Positions 34,048 through 56,688 are shown, numbered from the stretch's first letter. The stretch is DNA of 64,000 bases from Bacteroidia bacterium (GCA_044377005.1 JBILJV010000001.1:34999-98998); one strand, 5' to 3'. Notes: generated from the letters alone by a model not told the origin. A program made the numbers and translations.

Positions 34048-34074
34048 AATACATTGGGCTTATTGAATGAAAAA

Positions 34075-36013: not shown

Positions 36014-36222
36014 AACTGCATCGACTATATTACCATTAGTTTGTTTTCAAATGAAAAGATTAGAAAGTTTGTGTTAAAATTACAAAGCTTTAATGTGTTT
36101 TTTAAATTAAAACAGAAGCATGTGCATATGAAGTTTGTAGGATTTGGGGATTTAAATGTTTGTCAACTAACAAAATAGTTAAAGGTAGTATTGAATGAGC
36201 TATATTAACAAAAAGATGGTGT

Positions 36223-38171: not shown

Positions 38172-40052
38172 ATGAAAAAAAATTACAAATTTAAAATGTC
38201 TAAAGTCAGTTTGATGTCTCAAATTGCTTTATTAACCCTATTATTTTCAAGCATTGGTTTACATGCTCAAAAATCTCCAATAGATTTTGAAACAGGAGGT
38301 AATGGTGCAACATGGACGTGGACAGTTTTTGAAAATAGCTCAAACCCAGCTATTGAAATCATTACAAATCCAGACCAGTCAGGTATTAATACTTCTTCTA
38401 AAGTTATGAAATTTACAGTTTTACAAGCTGGAAATCCTTGGGCAGGTTGTGAATCAAAACGTGGTTCAACAGATTTAGACACATTTTCTTGGAATTCAAA
38501 AAATAGAATCATAAAGATAATGGTTTGGAAGCCAATAATAAGTGATGTAGGGATAAAATTTGCTACAGATTCAGGATGGGCAGAAGTTGAAGTGAAGGTG
38601 GCTAATACCAAAATTAATGAATGGGAAGAGTTAACTTTTGATTTTACAGGTAAAATTAATCCACCATCACTAAAAGGTAATTTAAATCAAATTATTATTT
38701 TCCCAGATTTTCAAGCAAGAACTAGTGATAATATCTGTTACATAGACAATATTACATTTAATACTGGTACAGCATCTGAACCAACTACGGCTGCTCCAAC
38801 TCCTACACAAGCATCTGCAGATGTAATCTCAATGTTTAGTAATGCTTACACTAATAAATCTGTAAATTCATGGAGAACTGATTGGTCTAAAGCTACTCTT
38901 ACTGATATTCAAATAGCTGGAAATGATACCAAAAAATACACTTCTTTGGATTATGTAGGAATTGAAACTTTAGGAGCTAATTTGCTAGATGTTAGAAATA
39001 TGTTGTATTTTCATTTTGATGTATGGACTCCCAATGCTAATACAGTAAGTGTAAAATTAGTTGATGTTGGAGCTAATGGAACTTTTGGAGGAGGGGATGA
39101 TAAAGAACATCAAGTTACTTTAACACCTACAAAAAACGGTTGGAATAGTTTTGATGTGCCTATGTCTGACTTCACAGGATTAACCTCTAGAGAACATATT
39201 GCTCAGTTGATATTTAATTCTACACCATCAGGTCAAGGAACCTTATACATAGACAATATTTTCTATCACAAAACGCCGATTATCGACCCTAATACGCCAC
39301 AAGAAGCTGCTCCAACTCCAGTTTTTGTAGGAACAGATGTTATTTCTTTGTTTAGTAATTCATACACCAACAAAACGGTTAATACCTGGCGCACAGAATG
39401 GTCCGATAAATCTAATTTAACAGATTTACAAATTAAAGGAAATGATACAAAAAGATATACATCATTAAATTTTGTAGGTATTGAAACTCTTGATACTAAT
39501 GTAATTGATGCTTCTAAAATGGATAGATTTTATTTTAATGCATGGACGCCTAATTTAACTTCACTTAAAGTAAAATTAGTTGACTTTGGTGCTAATGGTG
39601 CTGTAGGTGGTGGTGATGATAAAGAACATGAACTAACATTGACTACTCCTACTTTAAATGCTTGGAATACTTATGACTTGCCTTTATCTAGTTTTACTGG
39701 TTTAACAACTAAATCACACATTGCTCAATACATATTAGTGGGAACTCCATCAGGTTCAGGTACTTTGTTTATTGACAATGTTTTATTTAGAAAAGAAGCA
39801 CTTTCTGTTTCTAGTACTACTTTAAATACTATCAGTGTTTATCCAAACCCAGCGACTGAACAAGTTACATTATCTTCAGTTACTACTATTACTTCAGTTG
39901 AATTGTTCAATAGCTTAGGTCAAAAAGTATTAAGCTTAAATTCTGATTCTAATATTGTAACAATCGATATTACTAATCTTAATAAAGGTGTTTATACTAT
40001 AAAAACAAATACTTATAATGGACAATCTGTTTCTAAAGTGATTGTAGAATAG
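38172..40052 (+). CDS. Secreted triple CBM-like-domain protein with T9SS CTD (putative beta-glucan-binding protein)
   Basis: Three ~170-aa homologous domains ending in IDNI(T/F)F-like strands; domains 2 and 3 form a 172-codon tandem repeat; C-terminal SVYPNPATEQVTL CTD. Confidence 0.7.
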   Translation: MKKNYKFKMSKVSLMSQIALLTLLFSSIGLHAQKSPIDFETGGNGATWTWTVFENSSNPAIEIITNPDQSGINTSSKVMKFTVLQAGNPWAGCESKRGSTDLDTFSWNSKNRIIKIMVWKPIISDVGIKFATDSGWAEVEVKVANTKINEWEELTFDFTGKINPPSLKGNLNQIIIFPDFQARTSDNICYIDNITFNTGTASEPTTAAPTPTQASADVISMFSNAYTNKSVNSWRTDWSKATLTDIQIAGNDTKKYTSLDYVGIETLGANLLDVRNMLYFHFDVWTPNANTVSVKLVDVGANGTFGGGDDKEHQVTLTPTKNGWNSFDVPMSDFTGLTSREHIAQLIFNSTPSGQGTLYIDNIFYHKTPIIDPNTPQEAAPTPVFVGTDVISLFSNSYTNKTVNTWRTEWSDKSNLTDLQIKGNDTKRYTSLNFVGIETLDTNVIDASKMDRFYFNAWTPNLTSLKVKLVDFGANGAVGGGDDKEHELTLTTPTLNAWNTYDLPLSSFTGLTTKSHIAQYILVGTPSGSGTLFIDNVLFRKEALSVSSTTLNTISVYPNPATEQVTLSSVTTITSVELFNSLGQKVLSLNSDSNIVTIDITNLNKGVYTIKTNTYNGQSVSKVIVE

Positions 40053-40169: not shown

Positions 40170-43100
40170 TTACTCTTTGTTATTGTTGCTTTGGAAATTG
40201 ATTAAGAATTCAAATAAATCCTGATGAGTCTCTAATTTTAATTTTTTCCTTAAACGGTATCTGCTTATTTCTACCCCTCTAACAGATATGCTAAATAGTT
40301 GGGCCATTTCTTTGCTCGATAAATTCATTCTTAAGTATGCACAAAGTTTTAATTCTTTGGAATTTAAATCAGGATATGCCTTTTTTAAATTATTTAAAAA
40401 ATCACTTTGTACATTTTTAACATGATCTGTAAATTTATCCCATTCCTCATCTAGTTTTTCATCTGATTTTATTTGACGTAATATTTTTCTAATTTCATTT
40501 GTCTCAACTTGGTCTTTGTTCTGAATAACTAAATTGTTTAAATGACTTGTTAACTTACCTAAAAAAGCTTTTTTCTGAAGCAAATTCATCGCAGTACTTG
40601 CCAAGTCTTCACTTTTGTGCTTTATCTCCGCTTGAAGATTGTCATTAGTCAATTGCATTATCGCTTTTTCATTCTTTTCAAGCTCAAGTTGATGTTTATA
40701 GTTGATTTGACGTTGATCTTCCTCAAATTTAAGTTTAGCCTCAAGCATCCTAATTTGTGCTTTTTTCTGTAGTTTTTTCTTTTGTAGTTTAAGCAATAAA
40801 TAAAACACAGATAATATGATTAATAGATAAAGAAAATAAGCCCAAATATTTCTATACCAAGGGGCTTTGATTTCAAAATTGTATGAGAATTGCTTAAACT
40901 CGTTTAATGGTCCATGTCTTGATTTTAAAATAAAAGTGTACTTACCTTCTTTGAGATTTGTGTATTCTTTTTCAGAAGTTGAACTCCAATTACTCCATTT
41001 TTTATCATGACCTTCCAGTAAGTAACTAAATTCAATGTTTGATTTATGCCTCAAAAATGAACTTGCAAATGAAAACCGGATTGAGTTTGATTTGTAAGGG
41101 ATTGATGTTATTAAATTGTTGTTTTTGAGGAGATTGTTGAATCCTCCATAAATAATTGAATCGCCACTTCCCAAGGTTTTTACTGAACTTATGTAAGTTT
41201 TATAAGGGAATATTTGCTTAGAATACTTATTATAATTGATTTTATAAAAGCCAATGTCTGATCCTATTATTGTGTTTTCGGAATCGTAGCAGTAAATATT
41301 TTCAAAACCACTTAGTACTTGATTAAATAGTTCAGGAATATATTTAACAACTGGTTGAGAATCTTTAAAGTCCACTATGCCTAACATTTTGTCTTGAACA
41401 AACCAAATATTGCCATTTAAGTCTTCTTTTAAATACCTTATTGGGATATTGCCCAATATGTTTTTATAAAGTATGGAAGGAATTAACTTATCTCTTTTTT
41501 GGTCTATTTCATAAATGCCTTTAATTGTAGCTATTACAATTTTGTTTTTTATTTTAAAAACATGATTATCTAATTCAGAAGGTAATCCATCTTTAGCAGC
41601 GTATTTTTTAATCCTGTTATCTGTTATGTTGATTTTATATAATCCATGATAAGGGTGTGATACCCAAATGGAATTATTTTCTACCTCCAAATAACGGCTT
41701 GATTCAATAAAGTTTCTGATAGAACCATCGTTTTTGAGTTCCTTATTCTCTTTGCGAAAAAGTTGAATGCCAAAATAATTTCCGCATACTATTTTAGGAG
41801 GAATACTAACGTTTATTGGTTTAAATGTCCAAAAGCCTAAAGATTTAAAAATAGGGCTTACTTTGTCGTTATCGACTTTCCATAATCCATCATCTCTACT
41901 CACAATTAGTTGGTTTTCATAAGTATTAACATTCCAAGTTAGGCCATTCATTATAATTTTGGGTTTCAATGAAAGTGAACCTAATTCGTTTTTTTGTTTA
42001 ATATCTATAGATTGTAATCCTGTAGACAATGCAAAATATAAATCTCCATTTAATCTAATAGCACCATGCCCACTGCCGTTGTTAAATGAGTTGGGATTTA
42101 TATGGTAAATGGAATTTCCCCAATCAATAAGTGCGATACTGTTATCCATTCCTATCCAAGTACATCCATCAAACCCACTGTAAAGGCAGCGCATTGTATT
42201 GCTTACTAATCCTTGTTTTGTAGAAATATTTCCCAGTATATTTCCTTTTTTGTCTATTTTGTAAAGTCCTGAATTATATGAACCTAATAAAAAATGATTG
42301 GCGTTAATGACCTCAATAGTTGTAAAGTGATTTTCTTTTATTAAGGCATTAATTTTAAATGGGAGTAACTGATTTTTGGTTAATAAGAATAACCCATTTC
42401 CTGTGGTACTCAATAAACTCGTATCGATTCCAAATGGCTTTATATCAGTGATTTGAAATCCATTAGGCAACAAACTTTGATTGATTAGGGATTCCCATCG
42501 GCCTTTGTTGTACAGCAGTATACCGCTTTTCTTGTCTTGAGCAATTAGTTTATTGTGGTGTTTTTTTAATGAAGTCCATGTTGTTTTCGGTTTAAAATAG
42601 GAGATACAGTTGTTCGAATATCTAAAAATAAACTGAGGTGTCATAAAAAAAACGTCTTGGTCAATTATTTCGATATTCCAGATATCGGCTAATGAACTAA
42701 CAAATGGTGGGAGTTGTTTTTTTAAAGATGTAAATATGAATTTTCCTGATTTGTCAGCTTTGAAATAGCCAAATTCGTCTTGTGCACCCACATATAATCG
42801 ACCATCATTGCTCATTGCAATAGATCTTACAATAGTTTTATTTGGAACAGGATATAATTCCCATTTTACACCATTGTATATCAAAAGGCCTTCGTTATTT
42901 GCAATAAACAATCTGCCCATATTATCCCTTTCAATATCCCAGTTTTGTGTGCCTGCAGAATATTCGGATTTTGAAAAAATAGAAACCTTTGCATTGTCAA
43001 TTTCCTCTTGTCCAAAGCAGTTGATAATGAAAAGAAGAAGATACAAGCCCAAAAATAACCCTTTTTTAGAGGTGCATTTTTCTTTGGTTTTGTTTCGGTA

Positions 43101-43187
43101 TTTTATTGATTTTCGGATGTTAATAATGCAAAAATAACCAAATTTTTCAGTTTGATGTAGTAAAGTAGTAGTTTTTATTGGTTGCAA
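40170..43187 (-). CDS. Transmembrane one-component regulator: periplasmic Reg_prop beta-propeller plus Y_Y_Y sensor, TM helix, coiled coil, LuxR-type HTH
   Basis: Reg_prop-like repeats (e.g. DGCTWIGMDNSIAL); Y_Y_Y block (FSYLLEGHDKKWSNW...YTFILKSR); TM IWAYFLYLLIILSVFYLLL; C-terminal HTH KLCAYLRMNLSSKEMAQLFSISVRGVEISRYRLRKKL; no HK or REC domain; true start uncertain (long pre-signal leader). Confidence 0.75.
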   Translation of the reverse strand: MQPIKTTTLLHQTEKFGYFCIINIRKSIKYRNKTKEKCTSKKGLFLGLYLLLFIINCFGQEEIDNAKVSIFSKSEYSAGTQNWDIERDNMGRLFIANNEGLLIYNGVKWELYPVPNKTIVRSIAMSNDGRLYVGAQDEFGYFKADKSGKFIFTSLKKQLPPFVSSLADIWNIEIIDQDVFFMTPQFIFRYSNNCISYFKPKTTWTSLKKHHNKLIAQDKKSGILLYNKGRWESLINQSLLPNGFQITDIKPFGIDTSLLSTTGNGLFLLTKNQLLPFKINALIKENHFTTIEVINANHFLLGSYNSGLYKIDKKGNILGNISTKQGLVSNTMRCLYSGFDGCTWIGMDNSIALIDWGNSIYHINPNSFNNGSGHGAIRLNGDLYFALSTGLQSIDIKQKNELGSLSLKPKIIMNGLTWNVNTYENQLIVSRDDGLWKVDNDKVSPIFKSLGFWTFKPINVSIPPKIVCGNYFGIQLFRKENKELKNDGSIRNFIESSRYLEVENNSIWVSHPYHGLYKINITDNRIKKYAAKDGLPSELDNHVFKIKNKIVIATIKGIYEIDQKRDKLIPSILYKNILGNIPIRYLKEDLNGNIWFVQDKMLGIVDFKDSQPVVKYIPELFNQVLSGFENIYCYDSENTIIGSDIGFYKINYNKYSKQIFPYKTYISSVKTLGSGDSIIYGGFNNLLKNNNLITSIPYKSNSIRFSFASSFLRHKSNIEFSYLLEGHDKKWSNWSSTSEKEYTNLKEGKYTFILKSRHGPLNEFKQFSYNFEIKAPWYRNIWAYFLYLLIILSVFYLLLKLQKKKLQKKAQIRMLEAKLKFEEDQRQINYKHQLELEKNEKAIMQLTNDNLQAEIKHKSEDLASTAMNLLQKKAFLGKLTSHLNNLVIQNKDQVETNEIRKILRQIKSDEKLDEEWDKFTDHVKNVQSDFLNNLKKAYPDLNSKELKLCAYLRMNLSSKEMAQLFSISVRGVEISRYRLRKKLKLETHQDLFEFLINFQSNNNKE

Positions 43188-43274: not shown

Positions 43275-46200
43275 ATGCCCAAAAAGAATATCGAAATGAT
43301 TAAAAAAATGCTAATCCAATTTTTTTTGTTATTAGCTCCATTGTTAGTATTTGCACAAAGTGAAAAAGTGGAAGTAATTAAGTCGGAAAATGGATTTAAA
43401 CTTTCAGTCAATGGAAAAGACCTGTTTATAAATGGAATGAATTGGGATTATTTTCCAGTGGGAACAAATTACAATTACAGTTTGTGGAATCAGTCGGATG
43501 ATTTGATAAAAGCTGCTTTGGACAATGAAATGTCCTATCTAAAAAATATGGGAGTTAATGCCATTCGACAATATTCGGGTGTCCCTGCCAAATGGGTAAC
43601 ATATATCTATAATAACTACGGAATTTACACCATGCTCAATCATTCTTTTGGTCGTTATGGATTAAATATCAATGGTAAATGGGAAGCCAATACAGACTAT
43701 TCTAATCCAGCAGTTAGGGAAGTTTTGCTAAAAGAAACTAAGGAAATGGTGTCTCAATATAAAGAAACGCCAGGAATTTTGTTGTTTTTGTTAGGAAATG
43801 AAAATAATTATGGTCTCTTTTGGAGAGGCGCTGAAACAGAAAGTATCCCATTTGCGGATAGAAAATCGACTAAAGATGCTTACTTTATGTATAAGCTTTT
43901 TAATGATGCTGTTAAAGAATTAAAAACAATTGACAAAAATCATCCAATAGCCATTTGTAATGGTGATTTATTGTTTTCTGACATTATTGCAAAAGAGTGT
44001 GCTGATGTTGATATTTTAGGAGTAAATTGCTATAGAGGTCTTACTTTTACTGACCTGTATGAGCGAGTAAAAAAGGAGTTAAATATCCCTATTCTTCTTA
44101 CTGAGTTTGGATCTGATGCTTACAATACTCGTTCAAATATTGAAGACCAAGAGTTTCAAGCACAAGTATTATTGAGTAATTGGAAGGAAATATACAGCAA
44201 TGCTGCTGGAATGGGAAAAAATAATAATAGTTTGGGTGGTTTTACTTTCCAATTCAGTGATGGATGGTGGAAAACAGGTCAAACAATCAATTTGGATGAA
44301 CACGATGTTACAGCTTCTTGGTCTAACGGTGGGTATGGTAACGATTATGTTCAGGGTGAAAATAATATGAATGAAGAGTGGTTTGGAATTTGTGCAAAAG
44401 GTAAAACAAATGAACGTGGTTTATATGAGTTATATCCAAGGGCGGCTTATTATGCGCTTCAGAATATACACAATTTCAACCCATATTTAAGTAATTCTAA
44501 TCTAATAAATACTTATTTTAATTCCATATCAATTTTAGATGCAGCCTTAAAGGCAAGAGGAGATAAATCTGTTTTGGAATCCAAAGACAAAGGGAAATTG
44601 TATTTAAGCAATTTACAAGCCAATTTTAACACCTATCAAACAGGAGGAAGTTTAATAACAACACCGTCCACTTCCAATCCCTTAAATTCAAATTCATATC
44701 CCAATGTTCAAGGCTTTGACCATATGCAATCTTTTAACTTTGGAATTACCGCAAGGCCTGCTCCTAATATGAAAGCAAATGTTCAATTTAATGTATTAGG
44801 GAATGTTGCTACTAATCCAATAGATGAAATATTCTATGAAAATAGAGGAAGACCAATAACCATTCAAACGCCATCTGGACCACAACAAATTAACTCAAAT
44901 AATAGAGTACAATTGTATAAAGCCAATTACAGTTGGGATGCTAAGGATTTTAAACTAACAGGATTTTATAGAACAGGTCATTACCATTGGGGTTATGAAG
45001 GTGACTTTTTTGGATTATATCCTGAAGCCAATTATGGTCCTAATATTGATATATACAACGGCAATGCACCTTTTGGTTTTGAAATAGAAGGTAAAAAAAA
45101 TATTAAAGGTTTAAAGCTGGCTTTTGGTCCTGAATTATGGTGGGGAGCCAATCCAGCTTTTTTGTTAAAATACAATCGAAAAATAGCAGGGTTAGATGTT
45201 ACAGGGATTTTTCATGAGGATATTACTCAAAGAAATAATCTACAAAGTTCATTTGCAGTTCCTATGCCTAAAACTAGAAGATTAACCGTAGCAATAGGTA
45301 AGAAAATGAATCATTTTACCTTCGATTTGGGAGGGATTTGGGGCGGACAACCACTCAATGGAAGAACATTTCAAATGGTTTATGAAAATGTAGTCTACGA
45401 AGATAAAATTCAAAGTACAGATAATTTTGGGGGTAAAGCAAAACTCACCTATTCAAAAGGAGCTTTTCGTTGGTATGGTCTTGCTTCATATATGGGTTTA
45501 GTAGCTAATGGAGGGGTAGACCAAACCAAAACATTTACCGGTTGGGTTCTTAAGGATATAGGAAGCGGAAATATGTATAATGCACTTACAGGTCTGACAT
45601 ACAATATTGGTAAAATTCAAATAGCACCCAATTTTTTATTTCAAAAACCCTTAGTGGGTCCCATTGGCCCTAATTATTTAGCACCCGCTCGCCCAAGAAA
45701 CATTTTAGACGATCCTTTTTCTGTGAGAGGAAATAGAGAAACAGTGGGTGGAGAAATGTTGATTACATATGATCCAACACCTGCAACTTGGATGTATGAG
45801 TGGGATAATGACAGAATGGAAGATGCCAAATTTGCTTTTAGTTCAGGATTTGTTTACAGACATTTACCCACGGTTCAAGATGCCTCTATAGGTATTTTAG
45901 GAAATGGTCGTACCACTTTTGTCTTTCCGGGTTCTGCACCCGCGCAGGATCTTTGGGAACTAAACGCTAGAGTTGTTTCTAAAATTAATCCCGAATTCGG
46001 AATTATTGGGAATTTGTATTTTGGAAATGGTCAAGCCAATGGAAACGATACTAGAACAATCAATAGATATGGAATGGATATTAGAACTATTTATAAAAAA
46101 ATGAAACTAATTACCATTGTTAAAATAGATGATTGGGGTCCATTTGACTATCACCGAGATTTTAACCAAACTTTCCCACTTCAATTGATAGGTGATTGGT

Positions 46201-46418
46201 CAATAGAAGTTGGAAAGCCTGATTGGTTTATGCTCCCAGGAACGAAACTTGGATTCAGAACAACATATAGGACTTTAAATAAATACTCCAACAGATATTC
46301 ACCAATTACAACTTTAAATAATTTAGGTCAATTTGTCCCTGACCCCAATGCACTTGGTTTTCCGAATGGTAACGAATGGGAGCTAAGAACCTACATTCAA
46401 ATCAATATCAATAATTAA
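43275..46418 (+). CDS. Fusion protein: clan GH-A-like glycosidase TIM barrel (NE and TEFG motifs) plus ~600-aa beta-rich porin-like C-terminal domain
   Basis: Signal peptide LLVFAQS; N-terminal domain with LGNENNYG (acid/base-like) and ILLTEFGSDAYN (nucleophile-like); C-terminal half rich in Gly/aromatic residues with alternating strands; start refined from 43182 to the ATG at 43275. Confidence 0.5.
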   Translation: MPKKNIEMIKKMLIQFFLLLAPLLVFAQSEKVEVIKSENGFKLSVNGKDLFINGMNWDYFPVGTNYNYSLWNQSDDLIKAALDNEMSYLKNMGVNAIRQYSGVPAKWVTYIYNNYGIYTMLNHSFGRYGLNINGKWEANTDYSNPAVREVLLKETKEMVSQYKETPGILLFLLGNENNYGLFWRGAETESIPFADRKSTKDAYFMYKLFNDAVKELKTIDKNHPIAICNGDLLFSDIIAKECADVDILGVNCYRGLTFTDLYERVKKELNIPILLTEFGSDAYNTRSNIEDQEFQAQVLLSNWKEIYSNAAGMGKNNNSLGGFTFQFSDGWWKTGQTINLDEHDVTASWSNGGYGNDYVQGENNMNEEWFGICAKGKTNERGLYELYPRAAYYALQNIHNFNPYLSNSNLINTYFNSISILDAALKARGDKSVLESKDKGKLYLSNLQANFNTYQTGGSLITTPSTSNPLNSNSYPNVQGFDHMQSFNFGITARPAPNMKANVQFNVLGNVATNPIDEIFYENRGRPITIQTPSGPQQINSNNRVQLYKANYSWDAKDFKLTGFYRTGHYHWGYEGDFFGLYPEANYGPNIDIYNGNAPFGFEIEGKKNIKGLKLAFGPELWWGANPAFLLKYNRKIAGLDVTGIFHEDITQRNNLQSSFAVPMPKTRRLTVAIGKKMNHFTFDLGGIWGGQPLNGRTFQMVYENVVYEDKIQSTDNFGGKAKLTYSKGAFRWYGLASYMGLVANGGVDQTKTFTGWVLKDIGSGNMYNALTGLTYNIGKIQIAPNFLFQKPLVGPIGPNYLAPARPRNILDDPFSVRGNRETVGGEMLITYDPTPATWMYEWDNDRMEDAKFAFSSGFVYRHLPTVQDASIGILGNGRTTFVFPGSAPAQDLWELNARVVSKINPEFGIIGNLYFGNGQANGNDTRTINRYGMDIRTIYKKMKLITIVKIDDWGPFDYHRDFNQTFPLQLIGDWSIEVGKPDWFMLPGTKLGFRTTYRTLNKYSNRYSPITTLNNLGQFVPDPNALGFPNGNEWELRTYIQININN

Positions 46419-46451: not shown

Positions 46452-47858
46452 ATGAAAATGATAAATAAGTTAAGTGTTCAAATAGGTTTTATCGCCCTAT
46501 TTTTAATGGTTCAATTAGGGTGTAAACGCGAATTATCAGAGGATGCTGTATTGCCTCAATTTAGCAAAAATCCATATGTTTTTACCGATAACTTTATAGG
46601 ATTAGGTTCTGATTTTTATTTCCCTTTTGCAGATGCTAAGCCAGATGTTTTTTCAGTTGACTTAAAAGAGGGTTTCGAAAGCAATGCTTCAGTTAGAATT
46701 GATGTGCCCAATGAGACTGATCCAGGAGGAGCTTATGCTGGGGCAATTTTTAGAATAGATGGTGCTGGTAGAAATTTAAGTAATTATGATGCAATAACTT
46801 TTTATGTTAAAGCCTCTACTGGAACAAAATTAGGTGATGTTGGATTTGGGATTGATTACATTCAAGACAAAAATAAAGTGTCTATTCAAAATGTAAATGT
46901 TGGAACCAATTGGACCAAAGTTATTATTCCTATTCCCGATCCTACTCAATTGGTTAATGAAAGAGGTGTTTTTTGGTTTGCAGCTGGTACACAAGAGACT
47001 AATGGGGCAGGATATGTACTTTGGTTTGATGAAATTAAATTTGAGAAATTAGGGACTGTGGGAAAGCCAACTTCAAGGATTTTAAATGGCGAAGTTAGCA
47101 CGGTAAAGTCCTTTGTTGGAGCCTCAATAACGGTTACAGGTTTGAATCATATTTTTAATCTAACAAATGGTCAAGATGTTATTGTGAATTCTACTTCTGC
47201 ATATTATAACTTTTCAAGTTCAAATACTTCTGTGGCATCAGTTAATGACTCAGGAATTGTGAAAATATTAGCTATAGGTACAGCAGAAATAACGGCTAGA
47301 GTCAATGGGATATTAGCGAAAGGTAAGTTGATTATTGAGTCAAAAGGTAATTTACCTGGCGCACCTATCCCAACTAGGTCAGCAATCGATGTTAAATCTA
47401 TTTTTAGTGATGCTTATGTCAATGCAACTGAAAGTAATTTTACACCAGGTTTTGGCGGCTCTACTACAGTTTTTGACCAATTGACAACCAGTAGCGGTAA
47501 GATAATACAATATAATAATAATAATTATACAGGAATAATCTTTGGGAATACAGTCGATGCATCTTCTCTTGGTTTTTTACATATTGATGCATACGTAGAA
47601 AATGCATCATCTGTAATTGGAATTCAAATTAGAGATATTGGGGCAAATAAAACAATTGAGACTGACGTGTTTACAGGGAATCCAATAGGAGATGATAAGG
47701 ATAAAAGAATGAATTTGTCTGGATTTGAAGCAGGAGTATGGAAGTCTTTTGATATTCCTTTAAATGCAGGCATTCTGAATCAAAAAAATAATTTAGGTGC
47801 AATTATTTTAACCGGAGGTCCAAATTTTATGATAGACAATATCTATTTTTATAAATAA
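46452..47858 (+). CDS. Surface lipoprotein with CBM-like domain, Big_2 Ig-like domain and CBM-like domain (SGBP-like)
   Basis: Lipobox VQLGC; central Big_2 signature (SVASVNDSGIVKILAIGTAEITARV); C-terminal domain homologous to the repeats of the 38172 protein (AIDVKSIFSDAYVN...IDNIYFY). Confidence 0.65.
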   Translation: MKMINKLSVQIGFIALFLMVQLGCKRELSEDAVLPQFSKNPYVFTDNFIGLGSDFYFPFADAKPDVFSVDLKEGFESNASVRIDVPNETDPGGAYAGAIFRIDGAGRNLSNYDAITFYVKASTGTKLGDVGFGIDYIQDKNKVSIQNVNVGTNWTKVIIPIPDPTQLVNERGVFWFAAGTQETNGAGYVLWFDEIKFEKLGTVGKPTSRILNGEVSTVKSFVGASITVTGLNHIFNLTNGQDVIVNSTSAYYNFSSSNTSVASVNDSGIVKILAIGTAEITARVNGILAKGKLIIESKGNLPGAPIPTRSAIDVKSIFSDAYVNATESNFTPGFGGSTTVFDQLTTSSGKIIQYNNNNYTGIIFGNTVDASSLGFLHIDAYVENASSVIGIQIRDIGANKTIETDVFTGNPIGDDKDKRMNLSGFEAGVWKSFDIPLNAGILNQKNNLGAIILTGGPNFMIDNIYFYK

Positions 47859-47865: not shown

Positions 47866-48708
47866 TTGAAGAGAATTTTAAATAAACAATTAATGAATAA
47901 ATCGAATAAATTAACACTATTGACAATTTTAGCAATTTCTATGGGAGGATGTAAGGTAGAACCCATTCAGAACTTACCGGAAAAAAAATATGAATTGGTT
48001 TGGAGTGATGAGTTTGTAGGTGATTCTGGCGTTAATCCTAATGCTTTAAATTGGACTTACGATATTGGCACTGGACAAAATGGTTGGGGAAATAATGAAC
48101 TTCAATCCTATACCAACAATCCCCAAAATGTATCTTTGGATGGTTCTGGGAATTTGGTTATTTCTGCTTTGAAAAGTACTACAGTTAACTACACTTCGGC
48201 AAGAATAAAAACAGAAGGTCTTTTTGCTCATCAGTTTGGAAGAGTTGAAGCACGTATAAAAACACCAACAGGTTCAGGAATTTGGCCTGCATTTTGGATG
48301 TTAGGAGCAGATTTTAAGGATGTTGGCTGGCCTAAGTGTGGTGAAATTGATATTATGGAACAAAAAGGCAAATTTTCAAACATAACTTATGGTTCAATTC
48401 ACGGACCAGGATATGCTGGTGGTCAAGCTATTACTACGCCATACGGATTAAAAGATAATAGGTTTGATGCTGATTTTAATGTTTACGCGGTTGAATGGGG
48501 CCAAAATTATATTGATTTTTTTGTCAATAATTATTTTTACAAAAGAGTAACCCCCAACGATGTTAAGGGTGAATGGGTATTTAATAAACCTTTTTTTATT
48601 ATCCTGAATATTGCTGTTGGTGGAAATTTTGTTGGTCCTCCCAATATCAATACCCCTTTCCCAAGTTATATGTATGTTGATTATGTTAGAGTTTACAAAG
48701 AAATATAA
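47866..48708 (+). CDS. GH16 laminarinase-like lipoprotein
   Basis: Lipobox MGGC; LVWSDEF; catalytic EIDIME; 280 aa single catalytic domain. Confidence 0.82.
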   Translation: MKRILNKQLMNKSNKLTLLTILAISMGGCKVEPIQNLPEKKYELVWSDEFVGDSGVNPNALNWTYDIGTGQNGWGNNELQSYTNNPQNVSLDGSGNLVISALKSTTVNYTSARIKTEGLFAHQFGRVEARIKTPTGSGIWPAFWMLGADFKDVGWPKCGEIDIMEQKGKFSNITYGSIHGPGYAGGQAITTPYGLKDNRFDADFNVYAVEWGQNYIDFFVNNYFYKRVTPNDVKGEWVFNKPFFIILNIAVGGNFVGPPNINTPFPSYMYVDYVRVYKEI

Positions 48709-48854: not shown

Positions 48855-51800
48855 ATGTCAGGTCAAAAACAAAATAAAAAAGCTACTTTGGTAGAGATAA
48901 AAAGATTGAAAATAGAAGGAGAAAACTTCTTTTGTATTTCAAATTATGATGAAATGCGTCCCTTTTTTATGAGTGTGGTTAGCGATTCGCACCATTGGAT
49001 GTTTATATCTAGCAATGGGGGAATTTCTGCTGGTCGCAAGAATGCCGAATATGCTTTGTTCCCCTATTATACTGCGGATAAAATTACGGAATCCTATGAT
49101 ATAACAGGCTCTAAATCTATTTTTCAAATTATTCAAAATGAAAAAATTCATGTTTGGGAACCCTTTTCAGAAAGGAATAATAGCTTGTTCAACGTTTCTA
49201 GAAATTTGTATAAAAATGCAATTGGGAATAAAATTATTTTCGAAGAAATAAATCACACTTTTGAACTTACATTCAGGTACGAATGGAACTCAAGTGATCA
49301 ATACGGTTTTGTTCGTAAATCTTCTCTAGCAAACAATGGCAATCAAGCCTTAACCGTTGCTATATTAGATGGAATACAAAATATTATGCCTGATGGTGTC
49401 GGTGCTGATTTGCAAAACTCAACGAGTATTTTGGTAGATGCTTATAAACGCAATGAACTTGAGATAGAATCAGGTATGGGTATCTATGCACTCAGTGCAA
49501 TAATAGTTGACAAGGCTGAACCAAGTGAAGCTCTAAAAGCAAATATTGCTTGGTCTATAGGTTTTGATAAACCCAAATTCTTGCTTTCTTCCCTTCAACT
49601 TAATGCCTTCAGAAACGGAGAGGATGTTGTTCAAGAAGAGGATATTAAGGCAGAAAAAGGGGCTTATTTTATTAATCAAAAAATAACCTTAGCCAGTGGC
49701 GAAAAGAAATCTTGGTTAATTGTAGCTGATGTTAACCAAAGTCAAGCAAATGTAGTCGAACTGACCAATGAAATTATTTCAAATAATGAACTAAAAAAGC
49801 AAATTGAAAATGATATAGAATTAGGCTCTAAGCGCTTAAAGGAACTGAATGCTTCCTCTGATGGAATTCAATTGTCAGATGATGTTTACAGAGATACTCG
49901 ACATTTTTCTAATACTCTTTTTAATATAATGAGAGGGGGTATTTTTGATTTTAACTATCAAATTGAAAAAAAAGACCTCGTCAGTTATCTTGAAAATGCC
50001 AATAAAGATGTTTATGAAATTCACAAGGACTTGTTGCATAGCTTGGATGAAGTTTTTAACGTTTTTCAATTGCAAGAAATATACAGCACAATTAATGACA
50101 ATAATTTTAAACGACTTTGTATAGAGTATTTGCCACTTAAGTTTAGCCGAAGACATGGAGACCCAAGTAGACCATGGAATAAATTTTCTATCAATACACG
50201 TAATGCGGATGATCATTCTAAGGTGTTGGATTATGAGGGGAATTGGAGAGATATTTTTCAGAATTGGGAAGCTTTGTCCATCTCTTATCCTGCATTTACC
50301 AAAGGGATGATTCATAAGTTTTTGAATGCAACAACATTCGAAGGCTATAATCCTTATAGGGTTACAAAGAGTGGATTTGATTGGGAAACCGTAGAGCCGG
50401 ATAATCCTTGGTCGTATATCGGTTATTGGGGTGATCATCAAATTGTTTATTTGCTCAAATTGTTGGAAATAAATGAGAAATACTATCCAGGCCAACTGAG
50501 TAGTCAATTCAGTGAAAACCTATTTGTGTATGCCAATGTTCCTTATAAAATTAAAAATTATCAGGCGATTTTAAAAAATGCGAAAGACACTATTCAATTT
50601 GATAAAAAGTTAGATGAAGAAATTAGAGAAAAACGAGTTTTAATTGGTTCAGATGCTGCATTGCTTTTTGCGCAAAATGATAAAATTTACAATGTCAATT
50701 TTATTGAAAAAATATTGGCCACAATTTTATCTAAACTTTCAAATTTTATTCCCGAAGGTGGTATTTGGATGAATACCCAAAGACCTGAATGGAACGATGC
50801 TAATAATGCTTTGGTTGGAAATGGAGTTTCTATGGTTACATTATATTACCTCAGAAGGTTCCTTGAATTCTTCGAAAAACTAATTGAACCAATAGATGAA
50901 GAGCGCGTAGAATTGTCGAATGAGTTAATCATTTTCTTTAAAAAAATTCATGCTACATTCGATGACAACTTAGCTTTGTTAGATTCAGGGATAAATGACA
51001 GTCAACGAAAAGCAATTCTTGATAGCTTAGGACAAGCAGGAAGCGATTACCGTGAACATATTTATAAACATGCTTTTTGGGGCGAAAAAAGAACTATATC
51101 ATACCGAAGACTTAAAAGCTTTGTTAAAGTAAGTCTTCAGTTTATTGAACATACCATTAAGGCTAATAAGCGTCATGATAATATGTATCATTCATACAAT
51201 TTAATGACACTGAATAGCAAAAACGAAATTTCAATCAACTATTTAAGTGAAATGCTTGAAGGTCAAGTTGCCGTTTTAAGCTCCGGATATTTGTCTCCTG
51301 AAAGTGCCCTTAAATTATTGGATAGTATGAAAAGTAGTGCCCTTTTTAGAGAAGATCAACAAAGCTATTTACTCTATCCTAATAAGCATCTTCCTAAGTT
51401 TTTAGATAAAAATAGAATTCCTATTGAATTAATCAAACAATCGCATCTTCTTTCACTTATGTTTAATGATGGAAATAAATCAATTATAGAGCAAGATTTA
51501 AAAGGGGAATTTCGATTCAATGGGAATTTTAAAAATTCAAATGACTTGAGTAATGCTATTGATTTATTAAGCCATTCTAAATATGCATCATTTCTTAAAA
51601 GTGAAAAGAAACAACTCTTAGAAATTTTCGAATCTGTATTTAATCACAAGTCATTTACTGGTCGCTCAGGCACTTTTTATGGATATGAAGGTTTAGGTTC
51701 TATTTATTGGCACATGGTTTCTAAACTGCAATTAGCAGTCCAAGAAATGTGTATTCAAGCAATAGAGTTACATGAAAGTACTGAACTTGTTGCAGGCTTG

Positions 51801-52307
51801 TTGAAGCATTATTACGAAATAAATGAAGGTGTTGGTGTGCATAAATCACCCACCATTTATGGGGCATTCCCAACCGATCCATACTCGCATACGCCAAGTA
51901 ACAAAGGAGCACAACAGCCTGGAATGACTGGTCAAGTAAAAGAGGATATTCTGAGTCGATTTGGTGAATTAGGTGTTTTTGTCTCGAAAGGTTGTTTGTT
52001 TTTTAACCCTTGCTTGTTGAGAAAAAATGAATTTATATCTCAAAATCGACAGTTTCATTATGTAACTCTTGACATGGAACACAAATCATTAATGCCTGAA
52101 ATTGGTTCCTTGTGTTTTACCTATTGCCAAATTCCTATTGTATATAGATTGTCAAATGATAATTATCTTGAAATTGAAAAAAGTGACGGCACTGTTTTAA
52201 GGAATAATTCATTGTATTTAAATGAAGAATTAAGTCAACAAATATTTAAAAGAACGGGTGCTATATCTATAATTACAGTTTATATCAATGAATCTATTTT
52301 GAAATAA
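48855..52307 (+). CDS. Large cytoplasmic protein, candidate glycoside phosphorylase/hydrolase (GH94-clan, e.g. GH149/GH161-like)
   Basis: 1150 aa with no signal peptide, embedded in a glycoside-hydrolase operon next to an MFS importer; family assignment is inferential and no motif was verified. Confidence 0.35.
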   Translation: MSGQKQNKKATLVEIKRLKIEGENFFCISNYDEMRPFFMSVVSDSHHWMFISSNGGISAGRKNAEYALFPYYTADKITESYDITGSKSIFQIIQNEKIHVWEPFSERNNSLFNVSRNLYKNAIGNKIIFEEINHTFELTFRYEWNSSDQYGFVRKSSLANNGNQALTVAILDGIQNIMPDGVGADLQNSTSILVDAYKRNELEIESGMGIYALSAIIVDKAEPSEALKANIAWSIGFDKPKFLLSSLQLNAFRNGEDVVQEEDIKAEKGAYFINQKITLASGEKKSWLIVADVNQSQANVVELTNEIISNNELKKQIENDIELGSKRLKELNASSDGIQLSDDVYRDTRHFSNTLFNIMRGGIFDFNYQIEKKDLVSYLENANKDVYEIHKDLLHSLDEVFNVFQLQEIYSTINDNNFKRLCIEYLPLKFSRRHGDPSRPWNKFSINTRNADDHSKVLDYEGNWRDIFQNWEALSISYPAFTKGMIHKFLNATTFEGYNPYRVTKSGFDWETVEPDNPWSYIGYWGDHQIVYLLKLLEINEKYYPGQLSSQFSENLFVYANVPYKIKNYQAILKNAKDTIQFDKKLDEEIREKRVLIGSDAALLFAQNDKIYNVNFIEKILATILSKLSNFIPEGGIWMNTQRPEWNDANNALVGNGVSMVTLYYLRRFLEFFEKLIEPIDEERVELSNELIIFFKKIHATFDDNLALLDSGINDSQRKAILDSLGQAGSDYREHIYKHAFWGEKRTISYRRLKSFVKVSLQFIEHTIKANKRHDNMYHSYNLMTLNSKNEISINYLSEMLEGQVAVLSSGYLSPESALKLLDSMKSSALFREDQQSYLLYPNKHLPKFLDKNRIPIELIKQSHLLSLMFNDGNKSIIEQDLKGEFRFNGNFKNSNDLSNAIDLLSHSKYASFLKSEKKQLLEIFESVFNHKSFTGRSGTFYGYEGLGSIYWHMVSKLQLAVQEMCIQAIELHESTELVAGLLKHYYEINEGVGVHKSPTIYGAFPTDPYSHTPSNKGAQQPGMTGQVKEDILSRFGELGVFVSKGCLFFNPCLLRKNEFISQNRQFHYVTLDMEHKSLMPEIGSLCFTYCQIPIVYRLSNDNYLEIEKSDGTVLRNNSLYLNEELSQQIFKRTGAISIITVYINESILK

Positions 52308-52311: not shown

Positions 52312-53595
52312 ATGTGTAAGATCCGTCTGTTATATCGTCTTTTGTGCATACTTTCGGTTATTCTAATTGCTTGCAATAATCACAATTCTGTAAAAAGGAA
52401 TAAAGGTGAAAAGCCCTTTAGCAAAAAAGCTTTTCAAATATTAGGGGATACGAATTACCAAGCAATTTGCTATGGAGGGTATAGGAAAAATACTCGAGAT
52501 TCACAGCCTACTTTATCTCAAATAACAGAAGATATGCGGATTTTGAATGCAATGGGGATTAAACTGTTACGAACCTATAACACTCATTACAATGAAATAG
52601 AAACTTTATTGCAGGCAATCACACATTTACGTTCTGAAAATTCGAATTTTGAAATGTATGTAATGCTAGGAGTTTGGATAGAATGTGAAAATGCATGGAC
52701 AGAAAAAGAGCCTAGCCATGACAAGGAAAATGAGAAAGCAAATGCGGCAGAGATAAAAAAAGCGGTTGAATTGGTCAATCAATATCCTGAAATAATTAAA
52801 ATGATAGCCGTTGGAAATGAAGCAATGGTAAAGTGGGCTACTAATTATTATGTTCAACCTAATGTAATTTATAAATGGGTTAATTATCTTCAGTTGTTGA
52901 AGAAAAAAAATCAGTTAGACAGGGATTTATGGATTACCTCTTCAGATAATTTCGCATCATGGGGTGGAGGCGATACTTCATATCATGTCGATGATTTAAA
53001 AAAACTTTATCAGGCCGTTGATTTTGTTTCTATTCATACTTATCCAATGCATGATACCTATTATAATCCTAGTTTCTGGGGAACATTGCCAATAGAAAAT
53101 CAATTGTCAAATGAAACTCAAATAGACTCTATTATGAATAGAACATTGGATTATGCAAAAATGCAATATCTTGGAGTTTATAATTATATGAAATCTATTG
53201 GCGTTAATAAGCCAATTCACATAGGAGAAACAGGTTGGTCAACGAATTCTAATGATTTGTATGGGAGTAAAGGAACAAGCGCTTGTGATGAATATAAATC
53301 GGCTAGATATTATCAACTCATTCGCGAATGGACCAATAAAGAAAAAATGACCTGTTTTTATTTTGAAGCCTTTGATGAAAATTGGAAAGATGCCAATAAT
53401 ATTGGTGGTTCTGAAAATCATTTTGGTTTATTTAAAATCAATGGAAATGCCAAATATGCACTTTGGAATAAAGTGGATAAAGGCGTTTTTAAGGGATTAA
53501 CTAGGGATGGGAACATCATTGAAAAAACATACAAAGGGAATAAAAAAAAATTGATGAAAACTGTAGAATTGCCTTTTAAATTAAAACAAAAATAA
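52312..53595 (+). CDS. GH17-like beta-1,3-glucanase/transglycosylase lipoprotein
   Basis: Lipobox LIAC; acid/base AVGNEAMV and nucleophile IGETGWST match GH17 motifs (xGNE / ETGWPS). Confidence 0.6.
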   Translation: MCKIRLLYRLLCILSVILIACNNHNSVKRNKGEKPFSKKAFQILGDTNYQAICYGGYRKNTRDSQPTLSQITEDMRILNAMGIKLLRTYNTHYNEIETLLQAITHLRSENSNFEMYVMLGVWIECENAWTEKEPSHDKENEKANAAEIKKAVELVNQYPEIIKMIAVGNEAMVKWATNYYVQPNVIYKWVNYLQLLKKKNQLDRDLWITSSDNFASWGGGDTSYHVDDLKKLYQAVDFVSIHTYPMHDTYYNPSFWGTLPIENQLSNETQIDSIMNRTLDYAKMQYLGVYNYMKSIGVNKPIHIGETGWSTNSNDLYGSKGTSACDEYKSARYYQLIREWTNKEKMTCFYFEAFDENWKDANNIGGSENHFGLFKINGNAKYALWNKVDKGVFKGLTRDGNIIEKTYKGNKKKLMKTVELPFKLKQK

Positions 53596-55104
53596 ATGAA
53601 TATTTTGCCAAACATATCATTCTTTAACAAGTTTTTGCTTGTCGTTACTTGTATGGCTTTAGTTCAATGCACAAATGATAATATGAAAATTGAAGTTTAT
53701 GAAACCTCCAAAAGCGGAAATGCCTTAACTCTTGTTTCTGATTTTAAAACAGCTGAAAAGATAGTAAATATGTCAATTGACCCAGAGGTAACCTATCAAA
53801 CTATTGTTGGTTTTGGAGGTTCATTTACAGAAGCTTCAGCCTCTTTGCTCAACCAATTAAGTAAAGAGAAAAAAGAAGAAATACTGCAAGCCTATTTTGG
53901 TGATAATGGAGCTAAATATTCTTTAAGTAGAACACACATGGCATCTTGCGATTTTTCAAATACTAATTACACGTATGCCAAGCTTGAAAATGATTTGGAT
54001 TTGAAAGGCTTTACAATTGAAAATGATATTGATGATTTAATCCCAATGATATTAGAGGCTAAAAAAATATCGAAAGAAGGTTTTAAAATGATTGCTTCGC
54101 CATGGACTGCACCACCTTGGATGAAAGACAATAATCATTATGTGGGAGGGAAATTATTGCCTCAATATTACGATGTTTTTGCCTTGTATTTTTCTAAATA
54201 TTTGGATGCTTATAAAGATAAAGGAATTGATGTTTGGGGACTTACTCCCATTAATGAACCTCATGGGAATGGGAATAATTGGGAAAGTACCCATTTTACT
54301 CCTAAAGAAATGACAGATTTTGTTGAAAATCATTTGGGTCCTAAACTTGAAAAAGATGGGTGGAACGATATTAAAATTTTAGGTTATGACCAAAATAGAG
54401 CTGGAATAATAGAATGGGTGGATGAGATGTTCAGAAGTGATAAATCTTCCAAATATTTTGCAGGAACAGCTTTTCATTGGTATGAGAGTACCTATGAGGT
54501 TTTTCCGGAAGCATTGTCTTATGCACATCATAAAGCCCCCAATAAATTACTTATCGAAACAGAAGGTTGTGTGGACTCAGAAGTGCCCAAATGGCGAAAT
54601 GACCAATGGTATTGGGAAATGGAGGCAACGGATTGGGGTTGGGATTGGGCGAGTGAAAAAGACAAATACTTGCATCCTAAATATTCACCTGTCAACAGGT
54701 ATGCCATAGATATTATTGGGTGTTTAAATAATTATGTAAATGGTTGGGTGGATTGGAATATGGTATTAAATAAACAAGGTGGTCCTAATTGGTTCAAAAA
54801 TTGGTGCATTGCGCCGGTTATTGTTGATGCCGAAAATGATGAAGTTTATTACACTCCATTGTATTATGTAATGACACATTTTAGTAGATTTATGAGGCCC
54901 AGCGCTATGAAAATTAAATGTGAAATAGATCAAAAGTATCTTCATGCAACTGCTGTAAAAAATCCAGATGGAACTATTGCTGTTGCTGTGTTTAATCCAA
55001 TCAATGAAACAGTTGCTATAAAATTAAAACTAAATAACCAATTCCAAACATGGACCATAAACCCCCATGCCATTCAAACAATACTCATCAACAATTATAA
55101 ATAG
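53596..55104 (+). CDS. GH30 family glycosidase lipoprotein (probable beta-1,6-glucanase)
   Basis: Lipobox VQC; GFGGSFTEASA N-terminal signature; acid/base INEP; LLIETEG nucleophile region. Confidence 0.65.
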   Translation: MNILPNISFFNKFLLVVTCMALVQCTNDNMKIEVYETSKSGNALTLVSDFKTAEKIVNMSIDPEVTYQTIVGFGGSFTEASASLLNQLSKEKKEEILQAYFGDNGAKYSLSRTHMASCDFSNTNYTYAKLENDLDLKGFTIENDIDDLIPMILEAKKISKEGFKMIASPWTAPPWMKDNNHYVGGKLLPQYYDVFALYFSKYLDAYKDKGIDVWGLTPINEPHGNGNNWESTHFTPKEMTDFVENHLGPKLEKDGWNDIKILGYDQNRAGIIEWVDEMFRSDKSSKYFAGTAFHWYESTYEVFPEALSYAHHKAPNKLLIETEGCVDSEVPKWRNDQWYWEMEATDWGWDWASEKDKYLHPKYSPVNRYAIDIIGCLNNYVNGWVDWNMVLNKQGGPNWFKNWCIAPVIVDAENDEVYYTPLYYVMTHFSRFMRPSAMKIKCEIDQKYLHATAVKNPDGTIAVAVFNPINETVAIKLKLNNQFQTWTINPHAIQTILINNYK

Positions 55105-55125: not shown

Positions 55126-56688
55126 ATGTCAGTTTTATCTTCAAATAGCAGAGAAAAAGTTCCCTTTATTCAAAAAATTTCATTTGGTTCGGGTCACTTA
55201 GTCCTCAATTTATTGCCTGGAGCACTAGGAGTATTTAGCTTTTTTCTTTTTACAACCTTTGGTATGGATCCAGTTCTTGCAGGTTTGTTAGGTGGTTTGC
55301 CAAGGATTTATGATGCATTAACCGACCCAATTATGGGTTTTATATCAGATAATACAAAGTCTAAATGGGGAAGAAGGAGGCCATATATTTTTATTGGCGC
55401 TATCCTTAGTGGTATTTTCTATATTTTATTGTGGCAACTAAGTCCTGAAAATTCTCAAATGTATAACTTTTGGTATTTTTTGATTTTTTCAATTGTTTTT
55501 TTTACCGGAAATACCATTTATGCAACCCCTCTTGTTGGTCTTGGTTATGAAATGACATCAGATTATAATGAAAGAACAAAATTAATGGCCTTCTCCCAAA
55601 CGATTGGTCAGTTTGCTTGGATGATAGTCCCTTGGTTTTGGGTGGTCATTGCGGATCCTAAAATATTTGCAACCCAGGCAGAAGGGGTAAGTCAATTATC
55701 GTTTTATGTAGGTGCAGCATGTATCGTTTTTGGTATATTGCCTGCATTTTTTTGTAAAGGGATAGACTCTCAAAACATGGGAAATAGAAAGGAAATTAGT
55801 TTAAAAACAGTAGGGTCTAACATGAAAGACTTATTTGTTTCAATGAAGCAAGTCTCCAAAAACAAGCCATTTATGAAATTGTGTGGTGCTACTTTCTTGA
55901 TATTTAATGGGTTTCAAATTGTAGCGGCATTTAGTGTATTTATTATAGTGTTTTATATGTACAACGGGAGCTATGCCGCAGCAGGAACTTGGCCTGCATG
56001 GTTTTCAACTATTTCTGCTCTTTTAACAGCTTTTTTGGTTATCCCTATTATTACATGGATGTCAAAAAAATGGGGTAAAAGAAATGCATTTATTATTTCA
56101 ACGATTATTTCAATTGTTGGTTATATTCTAAAATGGTTTGGGTTTAATACTGAATTAAATTCGCAATTCAATCAAACAGTTTTATCTCATAAAATGACCA
56201 ATGCGGTAGGCTCATTTTTTGAATTGATAAATCCAATGCTCGCCGATTTGAATATGTCTTGGTTTTCAATCAATACCTCAAATGAAATGCCTTGGTTAAT
56301 ATTTTTACCCATCCCATTTATTGCATTTGGCTTAGGGGGACTATTTACGTTAATGATGAGTATGACAGCAGATGTTTGTGATTTGGATGAACTTGAAAAT
56401 GGTATGCCTAGAAAAGAAGGAACCTTTGGTGCTATTTATTGGTGGATGGTCAAGTTAGGTCAAGCGCTAGCTTTAGTTCTAAGTGGATTAGTGTTAAAAT
56501 TAATTGGTTTTGATGGTGGTGCAGCTTCACAATCTACTGAAACTATGTACTATTTAAGAATTGCAGATATTATTATTCCTTCGGTAACAGCAGCTATTGC
56601 AATAGTTATTATGTGGAAATATAATTTAGATGAAGAAAAGTCTAAAAAAATTAAAGAAGATTTAATTGCAAGAAGAGGCGAAATATAA
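55126..56688 (+). CDS. MFS glycoside-pentoside-hexuronide (GPH) family sugar:cation symporter
   Basis: 12 TM helices; GPH-family motif DxxTDPIMGFISD in loop 2-3; conserved RRRPYI motif. Confidence 0.75.
   Translation: MSVLSSNSREKVPFIQKISFGSGHLVLNLLPGALGVFSFFLFTTFGMDPVLAGLLGGLPRIYDALTDPIMGFISDNTKSKWGRRRPYIFIGAILSGIFYILLWQLSPENSQMYNFWYFLIFSIVFFTGNTIYATPLVGLGYEMTSDYNERTKLMAFSQTIGQFAWMIVPWFWVVIADPKIFATQAEGVSQLSFYVGAACIVFGILPAFFCKGIDSQNMGNRKEISLKTVGSNMKDLFVSMKQVSKNKPFMKLCGATFLIFNGFQIVAAFSVFIIVFYMYNGSYAAAGTWPAWFSTISALLTAFLVIPIITWMSKKWGKRNAFIISTIISIVGYILKWFGFNTELNSQFNQTVLSHKMTNAVGSFFELINPMLADLNMSWFSINTSNEMPWLIFLPIPFIAFGLGGLFTLMMSMTADVCDLDELENGMPRKEGTFGAIYWWMVKLGQALALVLSGLVLKLIGFDGGAASQSTETMYYLRIADIIIPSVTAAIAIVIMWKYNLDEEKSKKIKEDLIARRGEI

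Follow-up and report, generated by a model that had tools for sequence, protein, structure and literature searches.

In this study, we analysed a window of 64,000 nucleotides from a Bacteroidia bacterium (GCA_044377005.1 JBILJV010000001.1:34999-98998; all positions given here are counted from the first letter of this whole stretch) and determined that the gene at 48855..52307 on the plus strand encodes an ordinary, intact member of glycoside hydrolase (GH) family GH149. This family is already characterised and crystallised, and the 1150-amino acid (aa) product is not a new kind of protein. The open reading frame (ORF), a match to an NCBIfam model and a match to a solved structure in the Protein Data Bank (PDB) together point to a GH149 beta-1,3-glucan (laminaridextrin) phosphorylase. 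We put the probability that the protein is a cytoplasmic enzyme with this identity and this reaction, as judged from its sequence, at about 93%.

Two comparisons carry the family assignment. The NCBIfam model NF058639.1 (GH149_beta_1_3, an equivalog named '1,3-beta-D-glucan phosphorylase') matched the protein at 1757.2 bits (cutoff 1150), in an alignment that spans residues 13-1145 of the protein and positions 5-1134 of the 1134 in the profile. A search of PDB sequences returned 6HQ6/6HQ8, 'bacterial beta-1,3-oligosaccharide phosphorylase' (the enzyme Pro_7066), with E = 0 and 1614 bits, residues 16-1149 of the query being aligned to residues 42-1174 of the 6HQ6 chain. The Pro_7066 chain sequence was then rebuilt from the printed alignments and compared with the window protein by BLASTP, which aligned 1133 residues with 2 gap openings, at 63.1% identity and 79% positives. 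At E <= 10 the PDB search contained this one GH149 sequence (6HQ6), two GH161-type sequences (9QQK and 9H8V, the latter deposited as 'cellobiose phosphorylase') and nothing else; the GH161 structures were matched at E ~1e-10 over three short stretches. These comparisons place the protein in GH149 specifically, with GH161 as a distant relative in the same clan. The first-pass annotation of this stretch had proposed a phosphorylase of the GH94 clan, from GH149 or GH161, its catalytic motifs left unverified, and had recommended a family hidden Markov model search and a comparison with known phosphorylases. The former was run here in equivalent form, as the NCBIfam search, and the latter is the end-to-end alignment to Pro_7066; both bear out the proposal and narrow it to GH149, so that the interpretation is supported, with the enzymatic activity of the window protein as a prediction.

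The similarity to Pro_7066 extends to its domain architecture and its active site. The four domains of Pro_7066 (limits from PMC6771811) and the two inserts that are specific to GH149 align to the window protein with just one 2-residue and one 1-residue insertion or deletion, from which we infer the four-domain GH149 layout with both inserts. All on the plus strand, the predicted parts are an N-terminal beta-sandwich domain of aa 1-296 (48855..49742; residues 1-303 in Pro_7066), a helical linker of aa 297-334 (49743..49856), a catalytic (alpha/alpha)6 domain of aa 335-1039 (49857..51971), within it the inserts Dom1 (aa 363-423, 49941-50123) and Dom2 (aa 847-932, 51393-51650), and, at the C-terminus, a jelly-roll domain of aa 1040-1150 (51972..52304; residues 1046-1156 in Pro_7066). 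The active site of Pro_7066 comprises a WND loop (W651, N652 and D653, the last being the predicted catalytic residue), an RD motif (R470, D471) and H959 for phosphate (PMC6771811, to whose numbering 19 is added to obtain that of the PDB chain). Their counterparts, previously unverified, were all found conserved in the window protein: R465-D466, the RD motif for recognition of the sugar 1-phosphate (50247..50252); W646-N647-D648, the catalytic loop, in which D648 corresponds to D653 (50790..50798); and H953, the phosphate-recognition histidine (51711..51713). We aligned 202 sequences (120 from database clusters, 80 from genome loci, plus Pro_7066 and the window protein itself; 57-92% identity to the latter), and these six positions were invariant in 202/202, with 231 of the 1150 positions invariant overall. 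The PxWxDAxN context around D648 also aligns with the GH161 structures. The gene is intact, and the predicted enzyme looks catalytically competent.

The reading frame, which opens with ATG and runs for 1150 codons to a TAA stop, was reproduced at exactly the coordinates and on the strand reported in the first-pass annotation. At the ~33% G+C of the window, stop codons are expected to make up ~7.5% of random codons, and by our own arithmetic from this G+C the probability of an open frame of 1150 codons is ~1e-39; therefore the ORF did not arise by chance. No in-frame ATG, GTG or TTG occurs upstream of 48855 back to the preceding stop, and an N-terminal extension is ruled out because the ORF opens at the first possible start past that stop. 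The N-terminus of the protein (MSGQKQNKKATLVEIKRLKIEGENFF...) is hydrophilic, with a top Kyte-Doolittle hydropathy of 0.79 in residues 1-70 (15-residue window), and the top value over the full length is 1.23 (19-residue window). By contrast, five neighbouring exported enzymes or lipoproteins have N-terminal hydropathies of 1.6-2.6 together with signal-peptide or lipobox-like sequences (such as ...LFLMVQLGC, ...ISMGGC, ...VILIAC and ...MALVQC). This hydropathy test detected neither a signal peptide nor a transmembrane segment in the GH149 protein, and within its limits it confirms the earlier description of the protein as signal-less, and thereby as a predicted cytoplasmic one. An antisense ORF of 210 aa with a TTG start (49875..50507, minus strand) lies wholly within the gene and is most likely a chance ORF.

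The gene is located, as the first-pass annotation had claimed, inside an operon of glucanase genes that includes an importer. The genes on the same strand follow each other in the order GH158-like fusion, lipoprotein, GH16, GH149, GH17, GH30 and MFS_2 transporter, with intergenic gaps in that order of 33, 34, 146, 4, 0 and 21 bp, and a terminator scan detected no terminator-like site in these six gaps, an arrangement consistent with co-transcription. Scans of the operon as a whole were uninformative, with 9 terminator sites versus 7.7 ± 2.8 in shuffles and 81 sigma-70 promoter sites versus 68 ± 11 in shuffles, Bacteroidota promoters being outside the scope of the latter scan. The first operon gene (43275..46418) encodes a protein of 1047 aa in which a signal peptide and a GH158-like TIM barrel precede a C-terminal domain of ~570 aa. 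It is followed by a lipoprotein of 468 aa (46452..47858; lipobox LGC). Its Pfam matches, Big_2 and CBM30-like, are weak, and its comparison with PDB sequences gave just one short Ig-like stretch in common with teneurin-like proteins and was uninformative on function; this lipoprotein is a candidate surface glycan-binding partner that may have a role like that of SusD or a surface glycan-binding protein.

Directly upstream of the GH149 gene is that of a putative GH16 endo-beta-1,3-glucanase lipoprotein of 271 aa (47893..48708; Pfam GH16), whose ATG start agrees with the gene calls of its relatives and whose top PDB matches are beta-1,3-glucanases and laminarinases, the best being 2HYK at 4e-73. 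Downstream, a putative GH17 beta-1,3-glucanase lipoprotein with a lipobox (52312..53595; Pfam GH17) matched 6FCG ('Glycoside hydrolase, GH17 family') at E = 1e-167, a structure which we take to be Formosa FbGH17A. The next gene encodes a lipoprotein (53596..55104; Pfam GH30, 6.5e-74) whose sequence matches fit subfamily GH30_1, and which is by its role in the literature a putative beta-1,6-glucosidase. This GH30 protein is nearer to structures of human lysosomal glucosylceramidase (E ~2e-72) than to 5NGK/5NGL ('glucosylceramidase', 1e-38), which presumably represent a marine Formosa GH30. The last gene (55126..56688; Pfam MFS_2, 4.3e-60) encodes a predicted inner-membrane oligosaccharide importer of the glycoside/cation symporter type of the major facilitator superfamily (MFS).

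Taken together with what is known of the family, this gene order suggests how the enzyme would work. Surface and periplasmic enzymes (GH16, GH158-like, GH17 and GH30) would cut laminarin or chrysolaminarin into fragments and remove its branches, the MFS symporter would import the short beta-1,3 oligosaccharides, and GH149 would take the last step of the pathway, whose genes form a single operon that a BguR-type regulator would control. With inorganic phosphate, GH149 would remove glucose units one by one from the non-reducing end of beta-1,3-gluco-oligosaccharides with a degree of polymerisation (DP) >= 2, releasing alpha-D-glucose 1-phosphate (Glc-1-P) and a shortened chain, and finally free glucose. 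The analogy with GH94 and Pro_7066 would make D648 the catalytic acid, with R465 and D466 holding the sugar phosphate and H953 helping to bind phosphate. Phosphorolysis to Glc-1-P would save one ATP per bond relative to hydrolysis followed by a kinase. Pro_7066 phosphorolyses beta-1,3-gluco-oligosaccharides from G3 down to glucose (PMC5827456, PMC6484121), and a single phosphorylase should suffice in the window's pathway because Pro_7066 degrades G3 all the way to glucose, unlike GH161, for which G2 is the end point (PMC6484121).

Several points weigh against this assignment and the role proposed with it. The closest relative with activity data, Pro_7066, is at 63% identity, and Pfam, one general library, is silent on the protein (no family at E <= 0.01), which is because Pfam has no GH149 model and not for want of homology. 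The reaction is reversible in vitro, so that its direction in vivo is a matter of context alone. Neither a phosphoglucomutase nor a glucokinase was found in the window, and with no gene for the former the fate of Glc-1-P is not traceable there. In addition, the 146-bp gap upstream of the GH149 gene could hold an internal promoter. Finally, the rare residues Q836 and K984 at a predicted surface site of the enzyme may mean that its affinity for longer chains differs.

This last point bears on the alternative that fares best, although we consider it improbable, namely that the protein is a GH149 enzyme with a shifted specificity, either for very short substrates through a degraded surface site or for oligosaccharides that are branched or of mixed linkage. 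The surface site at which Pro_7066 binds laminarihexaose is formed by K831, E838, Y841, E982, E990, Y993, E994 and R1062 and lies ~30 Å away from the active site, and its function is a proposal (PMC6771811). In the window protein, K826, E833, Y987, E988 and R1056 of the site are kept, with an intact YE motif, and the remaining three out of eight are substituted (Q for Y841, T for E982 and K for E990). By the alignment to Pro_7066, the predicted positions Q836, T976, K984, Y987 and E988 are within 51360..51818 on the plus strand, K826, E833 and R1056 falling just outside that interval. Q836 (51360..51362) replaces the stacking tyrosine Y841 in a column with Tyr in 185/202 sequences and Gln in 2/202, and one of the two stacking tyrosines of the site is thereby lost; K984 (51804..51806) replaces E990 in a column with Glu in 147/202 and Lys in 5/202; and T976 replaces E982 at a position that varies in any case. 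The rarity of Q836 and K984 would favour a shifted specificity, as would the different chain-length kinetics of Pro_7066 and EgP1, the GH149 enzyme of Euglena gracilis, at 45% identity, and the tolerance of Pro_7066 for some other beta-linked disaccharide acceptors (PMC6484121). Against it, the active-site residues are unchanged, the altered site is distant from them and has just a proposed function, and the remainder of the operon is a standard laminarin set. We therefore treat the altered surface site as a minor variant, and the site itself as a feature of close bacterial relatives and not one that defines the family.

Less probable still is that the enzyme in vivo serves synthesis above all, turning Glc-1-P into a store of beta-1,3-glucan inside the cell instead of breaking down what the importer brings in. 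Such a role can draw on the reversibility of GH149 reactions, Pro_7066 making chains of up to DP 11 in vitro, and on the unsettled physiological role of the eukaryotic GH149 enzymes (PMC5827456). However, the window's gene is situated between those for exported beta-glucanases and an importer, in a type of operon that is laminarin-induced in Formosa, and no genes for glucan synthesis or for the formation of Glc-1-P are adjacent to it. In addition, the phosphate of the cytoplasm normally favours phosphorolysis. Membership of GH161 or GH94, or a hydrolase, was rejected and is refuted at the level of sequence: clan GH-Q shares the RD and D-A-N motifs, but the GH161 similarity amounts to 43 bits in three fragments versus 1614 bits end to end for GH149 and a model score far over the equivalog cutoff, no GH94-type Pfam model and no GH94 structure among the PDB matches at E <= 10 was found, and the phosphate-recognition histidine is conserved.

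Dozens of genomes of Bacteroidota show the gene order of this operon. At least 598 genomes encode a relative in a scan with one genome per species, and for synteny we considered the best 80 loci from species-level genomes, counting a neighbour when its match spanned over half of that protein and both order and strand were kept. Counterparts of GH17 were present in 73 of these loci, MFS in 68, GH16 in 60, GH30 in 57 and the first gene in 44; the 468-aa lipoprotein (>50% coverage) was likewise present in 44/80, always listed directly after the first gene. All seven operon genes are common to the window, a metagenome-assembled genome (MAG) labelled Formosa sp. Hel1_33_131 (locus L006, with the same order) and Flavobacterium aquatile, and the locus of Polaribacter sp. 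Hel1_85 shares GH16, GH149, GH17, GH30 and MFS. The nearest named relatives are MAGs of uncultured 'Bacteroidia/Bacteroidota bacterium', and the representative of the protein's 90% cluster (92% identity) is found on ENA and JGI metagenome contigs with an identical gene order.

These features correspond to previously described systems. Bacteroidetes GH149 genes are known both from polysaccharide utilization loci (PULs) and from clusters of carbohydrate-active enzyme genes that lack susCD, with GH16/GH17 and GH3/GH30_1, and the contextual argument for a cytoplasmic enzyme that acts after exported glucanases and an importer has already been made for GH149 (PMC5827456). A GH149 member has also been noted in Formosa laminarin PULs (PMC6246565), and the 'variant 1' laminarin PUL is defined as GH149-GH0-GH30_1-GH17-GH16_3 and was highly expressed in bloom metatranscriptomics (PMC10108472). 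With GH149, GH17, GH30_1, GH16 and MFS genes co-located on one strand, the window's locus is of this published, BguR-associated 'variant 1' type. Variant 1 loci (PUL 2 of Formosa sp. Hel1_33_131, Polaribacter and Aurantivirga; PMC6246565, PMC10108472) share with it the order of GH16, GH149, GH17, GH30_1 and MFS, a further gene that is GH158-like or left unclassified as 'GH0', and a one-component regulator of the Y_Y_Y/GerE type. The window differs from them in that its GH17 and MFS are separate genes and not fused, and in having no susC/susD in its 64 kb, where none of the large ORFs had a Plug, TonB_dep_Rec or SusD match; the absence of a susC/susD pair means that the locus is not a canonical SusC/SusD PUL.

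Among the characterised enzymes, Pro_7066, the founding GH149 enzyme from bacteria, resembles the window protein in its length class, four-domain layout with Dom1 and Dom2, WND, RD and histidine residues and lack of a targeting peptide, as well as in its probable Flavobacteriia/Bacteroidota origin. EgP1 is the founding GH149 member and catalyses the same reaction (PMC5827456), but it is eukaryotic, has a longer precursor and prefers short acceptors. The GH161 enzymes (PapP; 9QQK/9SR2, 9H8V; PMC6484121) are similar in belonging to clan GH-Q, in their RD and catalytic Asp motifs and in a cytoplasmic role after import. They differ in that they do not cleave laminaribiose, occur mostly in Gram-positive bacteria and are usually accompanied by ABC transporters (PMC6484121).

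The main value of these results is a firm annotation, as a protein that is called hypothetical is placed in a characterised enzyme family. The exact protein is listed in the NCBI and JGI/IMG collections, on a 109-kb contig, as a 'hypothetical protein'. Every one of the 14 named proteins in its 90% cluster has the same label, and two relatives with 75-76% identity go under the name of 'ribosome-associated translation inhibitor RaiA', evidently in error. The ecological weight of GH149 comes from laminarin, one of the major pools of carbon in the sea, and variant 1 loci rank with the most strongly expressed glycan loci of algal blooms (PMC10108472); in addition, GH149 phosphorylases are of importance as biocatalysts for the synthesis of beta-1,3-glucans. 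The window adds a GH149 member with an unusual surface site from an uncultured Bacteroidia lineage and leaves the understanding of the family unchanged. Both the protein family and the locus type were already known; besides the annotation, the useful results are the observation on the surface site and a lead concerning the fusion protein that is encoded by the first gene of the operon.

The fusion is the more interesting of the two. The best structural matches of its N-terminal TIM barrel are the GH158 endo-beta-1,3-glucanases 9P26/9ORO (E ~1e-13, TM-score of 0.51 on the target), followed in the same fold search by BuGH158 6PAL at 8.6e-10, and by sequence the protein matches 9ORO at E = 1.7e-5. 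Both catalytic glutamates of clan GH-A, E176 (GNEN) and E277 (TEFG), are invariant, and the protein is very conserved, with 73-96% identity in the top 120 clusters. The C-terminal ~570 residues have no Pfam match. AlphaFold2 (AF2) models were obtained for the full-length protein, with a predicted local distance difference test score (pLDDT) of 59.7 and a predicted TM-score (pTM) of 0.42, and for the C-terminal half (pLDDT 61.2, pTM 0.56). The latter was needed because a Foldseek search with the full-length model matched the N-terminal TIM barrel alone. In both models, residues ~480-1047 form ~27-28 strands of 10-13 residues, arranged in hairpins whose tight turns alternate with long loops of low confidence; the strands of the C-terminal half are amphipathic, and the domain is rich in Gly and without Cys. 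With the C-terminal half as query, the top-50 Foldseek matches were all outer-membrane beta-barrels (E 1e-6 to 2e-4), including LptD, TonB-dependent transporters, MOMP, ScrY and AlgE, at TM-scores of just 0.19-0.39, which support the fold class and nothing finer. The models, both of moderate confidence, and the fold search suggest that the C-terminal half is a large outer-membrane beta-barrel.

The distribution of this domain can be compared with that of SusC. The domain family is modest in size, with 470 representative clusters. Besides the fusion, it occurs as stand-alone proteins of 570-615 aa and in proteins where a different N-terminal module, CBM_4_9 among others, precedes the domain. 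Among the 68 GH149 loci with >= 8 kb of upstream sequence, 44 have the domain. In every case it comes directly after the TIM-barrel coding region in the same orientation, as would fit a fusion, and SusC was found in 0/44 of these. SusC is present in 15/68 loci, none of them with the C-terminal domain, so that the two occur together in 0/68. The SusC-type loci instead have a stand-alone GH158-like enzyme of 434 aa and PKD/CBM proteins, and the related loci L061 and L047 are examples with SusC/SusD genes. Possibly, the fusion joins a surface laminarinase to an outer-membrane oligosaccharide channel that replaces SusC here, providing a route independent of SusC/SusD in which the 468-aa lipoprotein would help, a tentative reading to which we would give somewhat less than even odds. 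The first gene is called 'glycosidase' or 'hypothetical' in databases and 'GH0' or 'GH2' in papers, and no description of a 'glycanase-porin' device was found in the literature searched, although it may be described elsewhere. If the reading is true, the fusion could tell something new about the uptake of glycans without SusC/D.

Upstream of the operon, the minus strand encodes a divergent regulator of the BguR type (40170..43187), a predicted membrane-spanning one-component protein with a Reg_prop propeller, a Y_Y_Y domain, a single transmembrane helix at ~aa 780 and a GerE/LuxR helix-turn-helix (HTH) at ~aa 945. In Pfam the Reg_prop and Y_Y_Y matches are significant and that to GerE is weak (E = 0.029), with a recognisable HTH sequence; no matches to the kinase and receiver domains HisKA, HATPase or Response_reg were found in the regulator. 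By these domains the protein has the architecture of BguR, the one-component regulator of the laminarin loci of marine bacteria (bioRxiv 10.64898/2026.01.10.698779). The divergent region between the regulator and the first operon gene is ~87 bp, and the ORF listed for the regulator begins with TTG and overlaps the ORF called mechanically, likewise from a TTG, for the first operon gene, so that the start given here for the regulator is provisional.

The beta-glucan region extends further upstream of the operon (29706..40052). It includes genes for a GH1 beta-glucosidase (29706..31076), a protein with a type IX secretion system (T9SS) tail (34130..36013) and a T9SS-tailed GH16 (36223..37839), all on the minus strand, and for a T9SS-tailed protein with a CBM11-like domain on the plus strand (38172..40052). 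The T9SS-tailed proteins point to secreted or surface-attached glucanases besides the lipoprotein enzymes.

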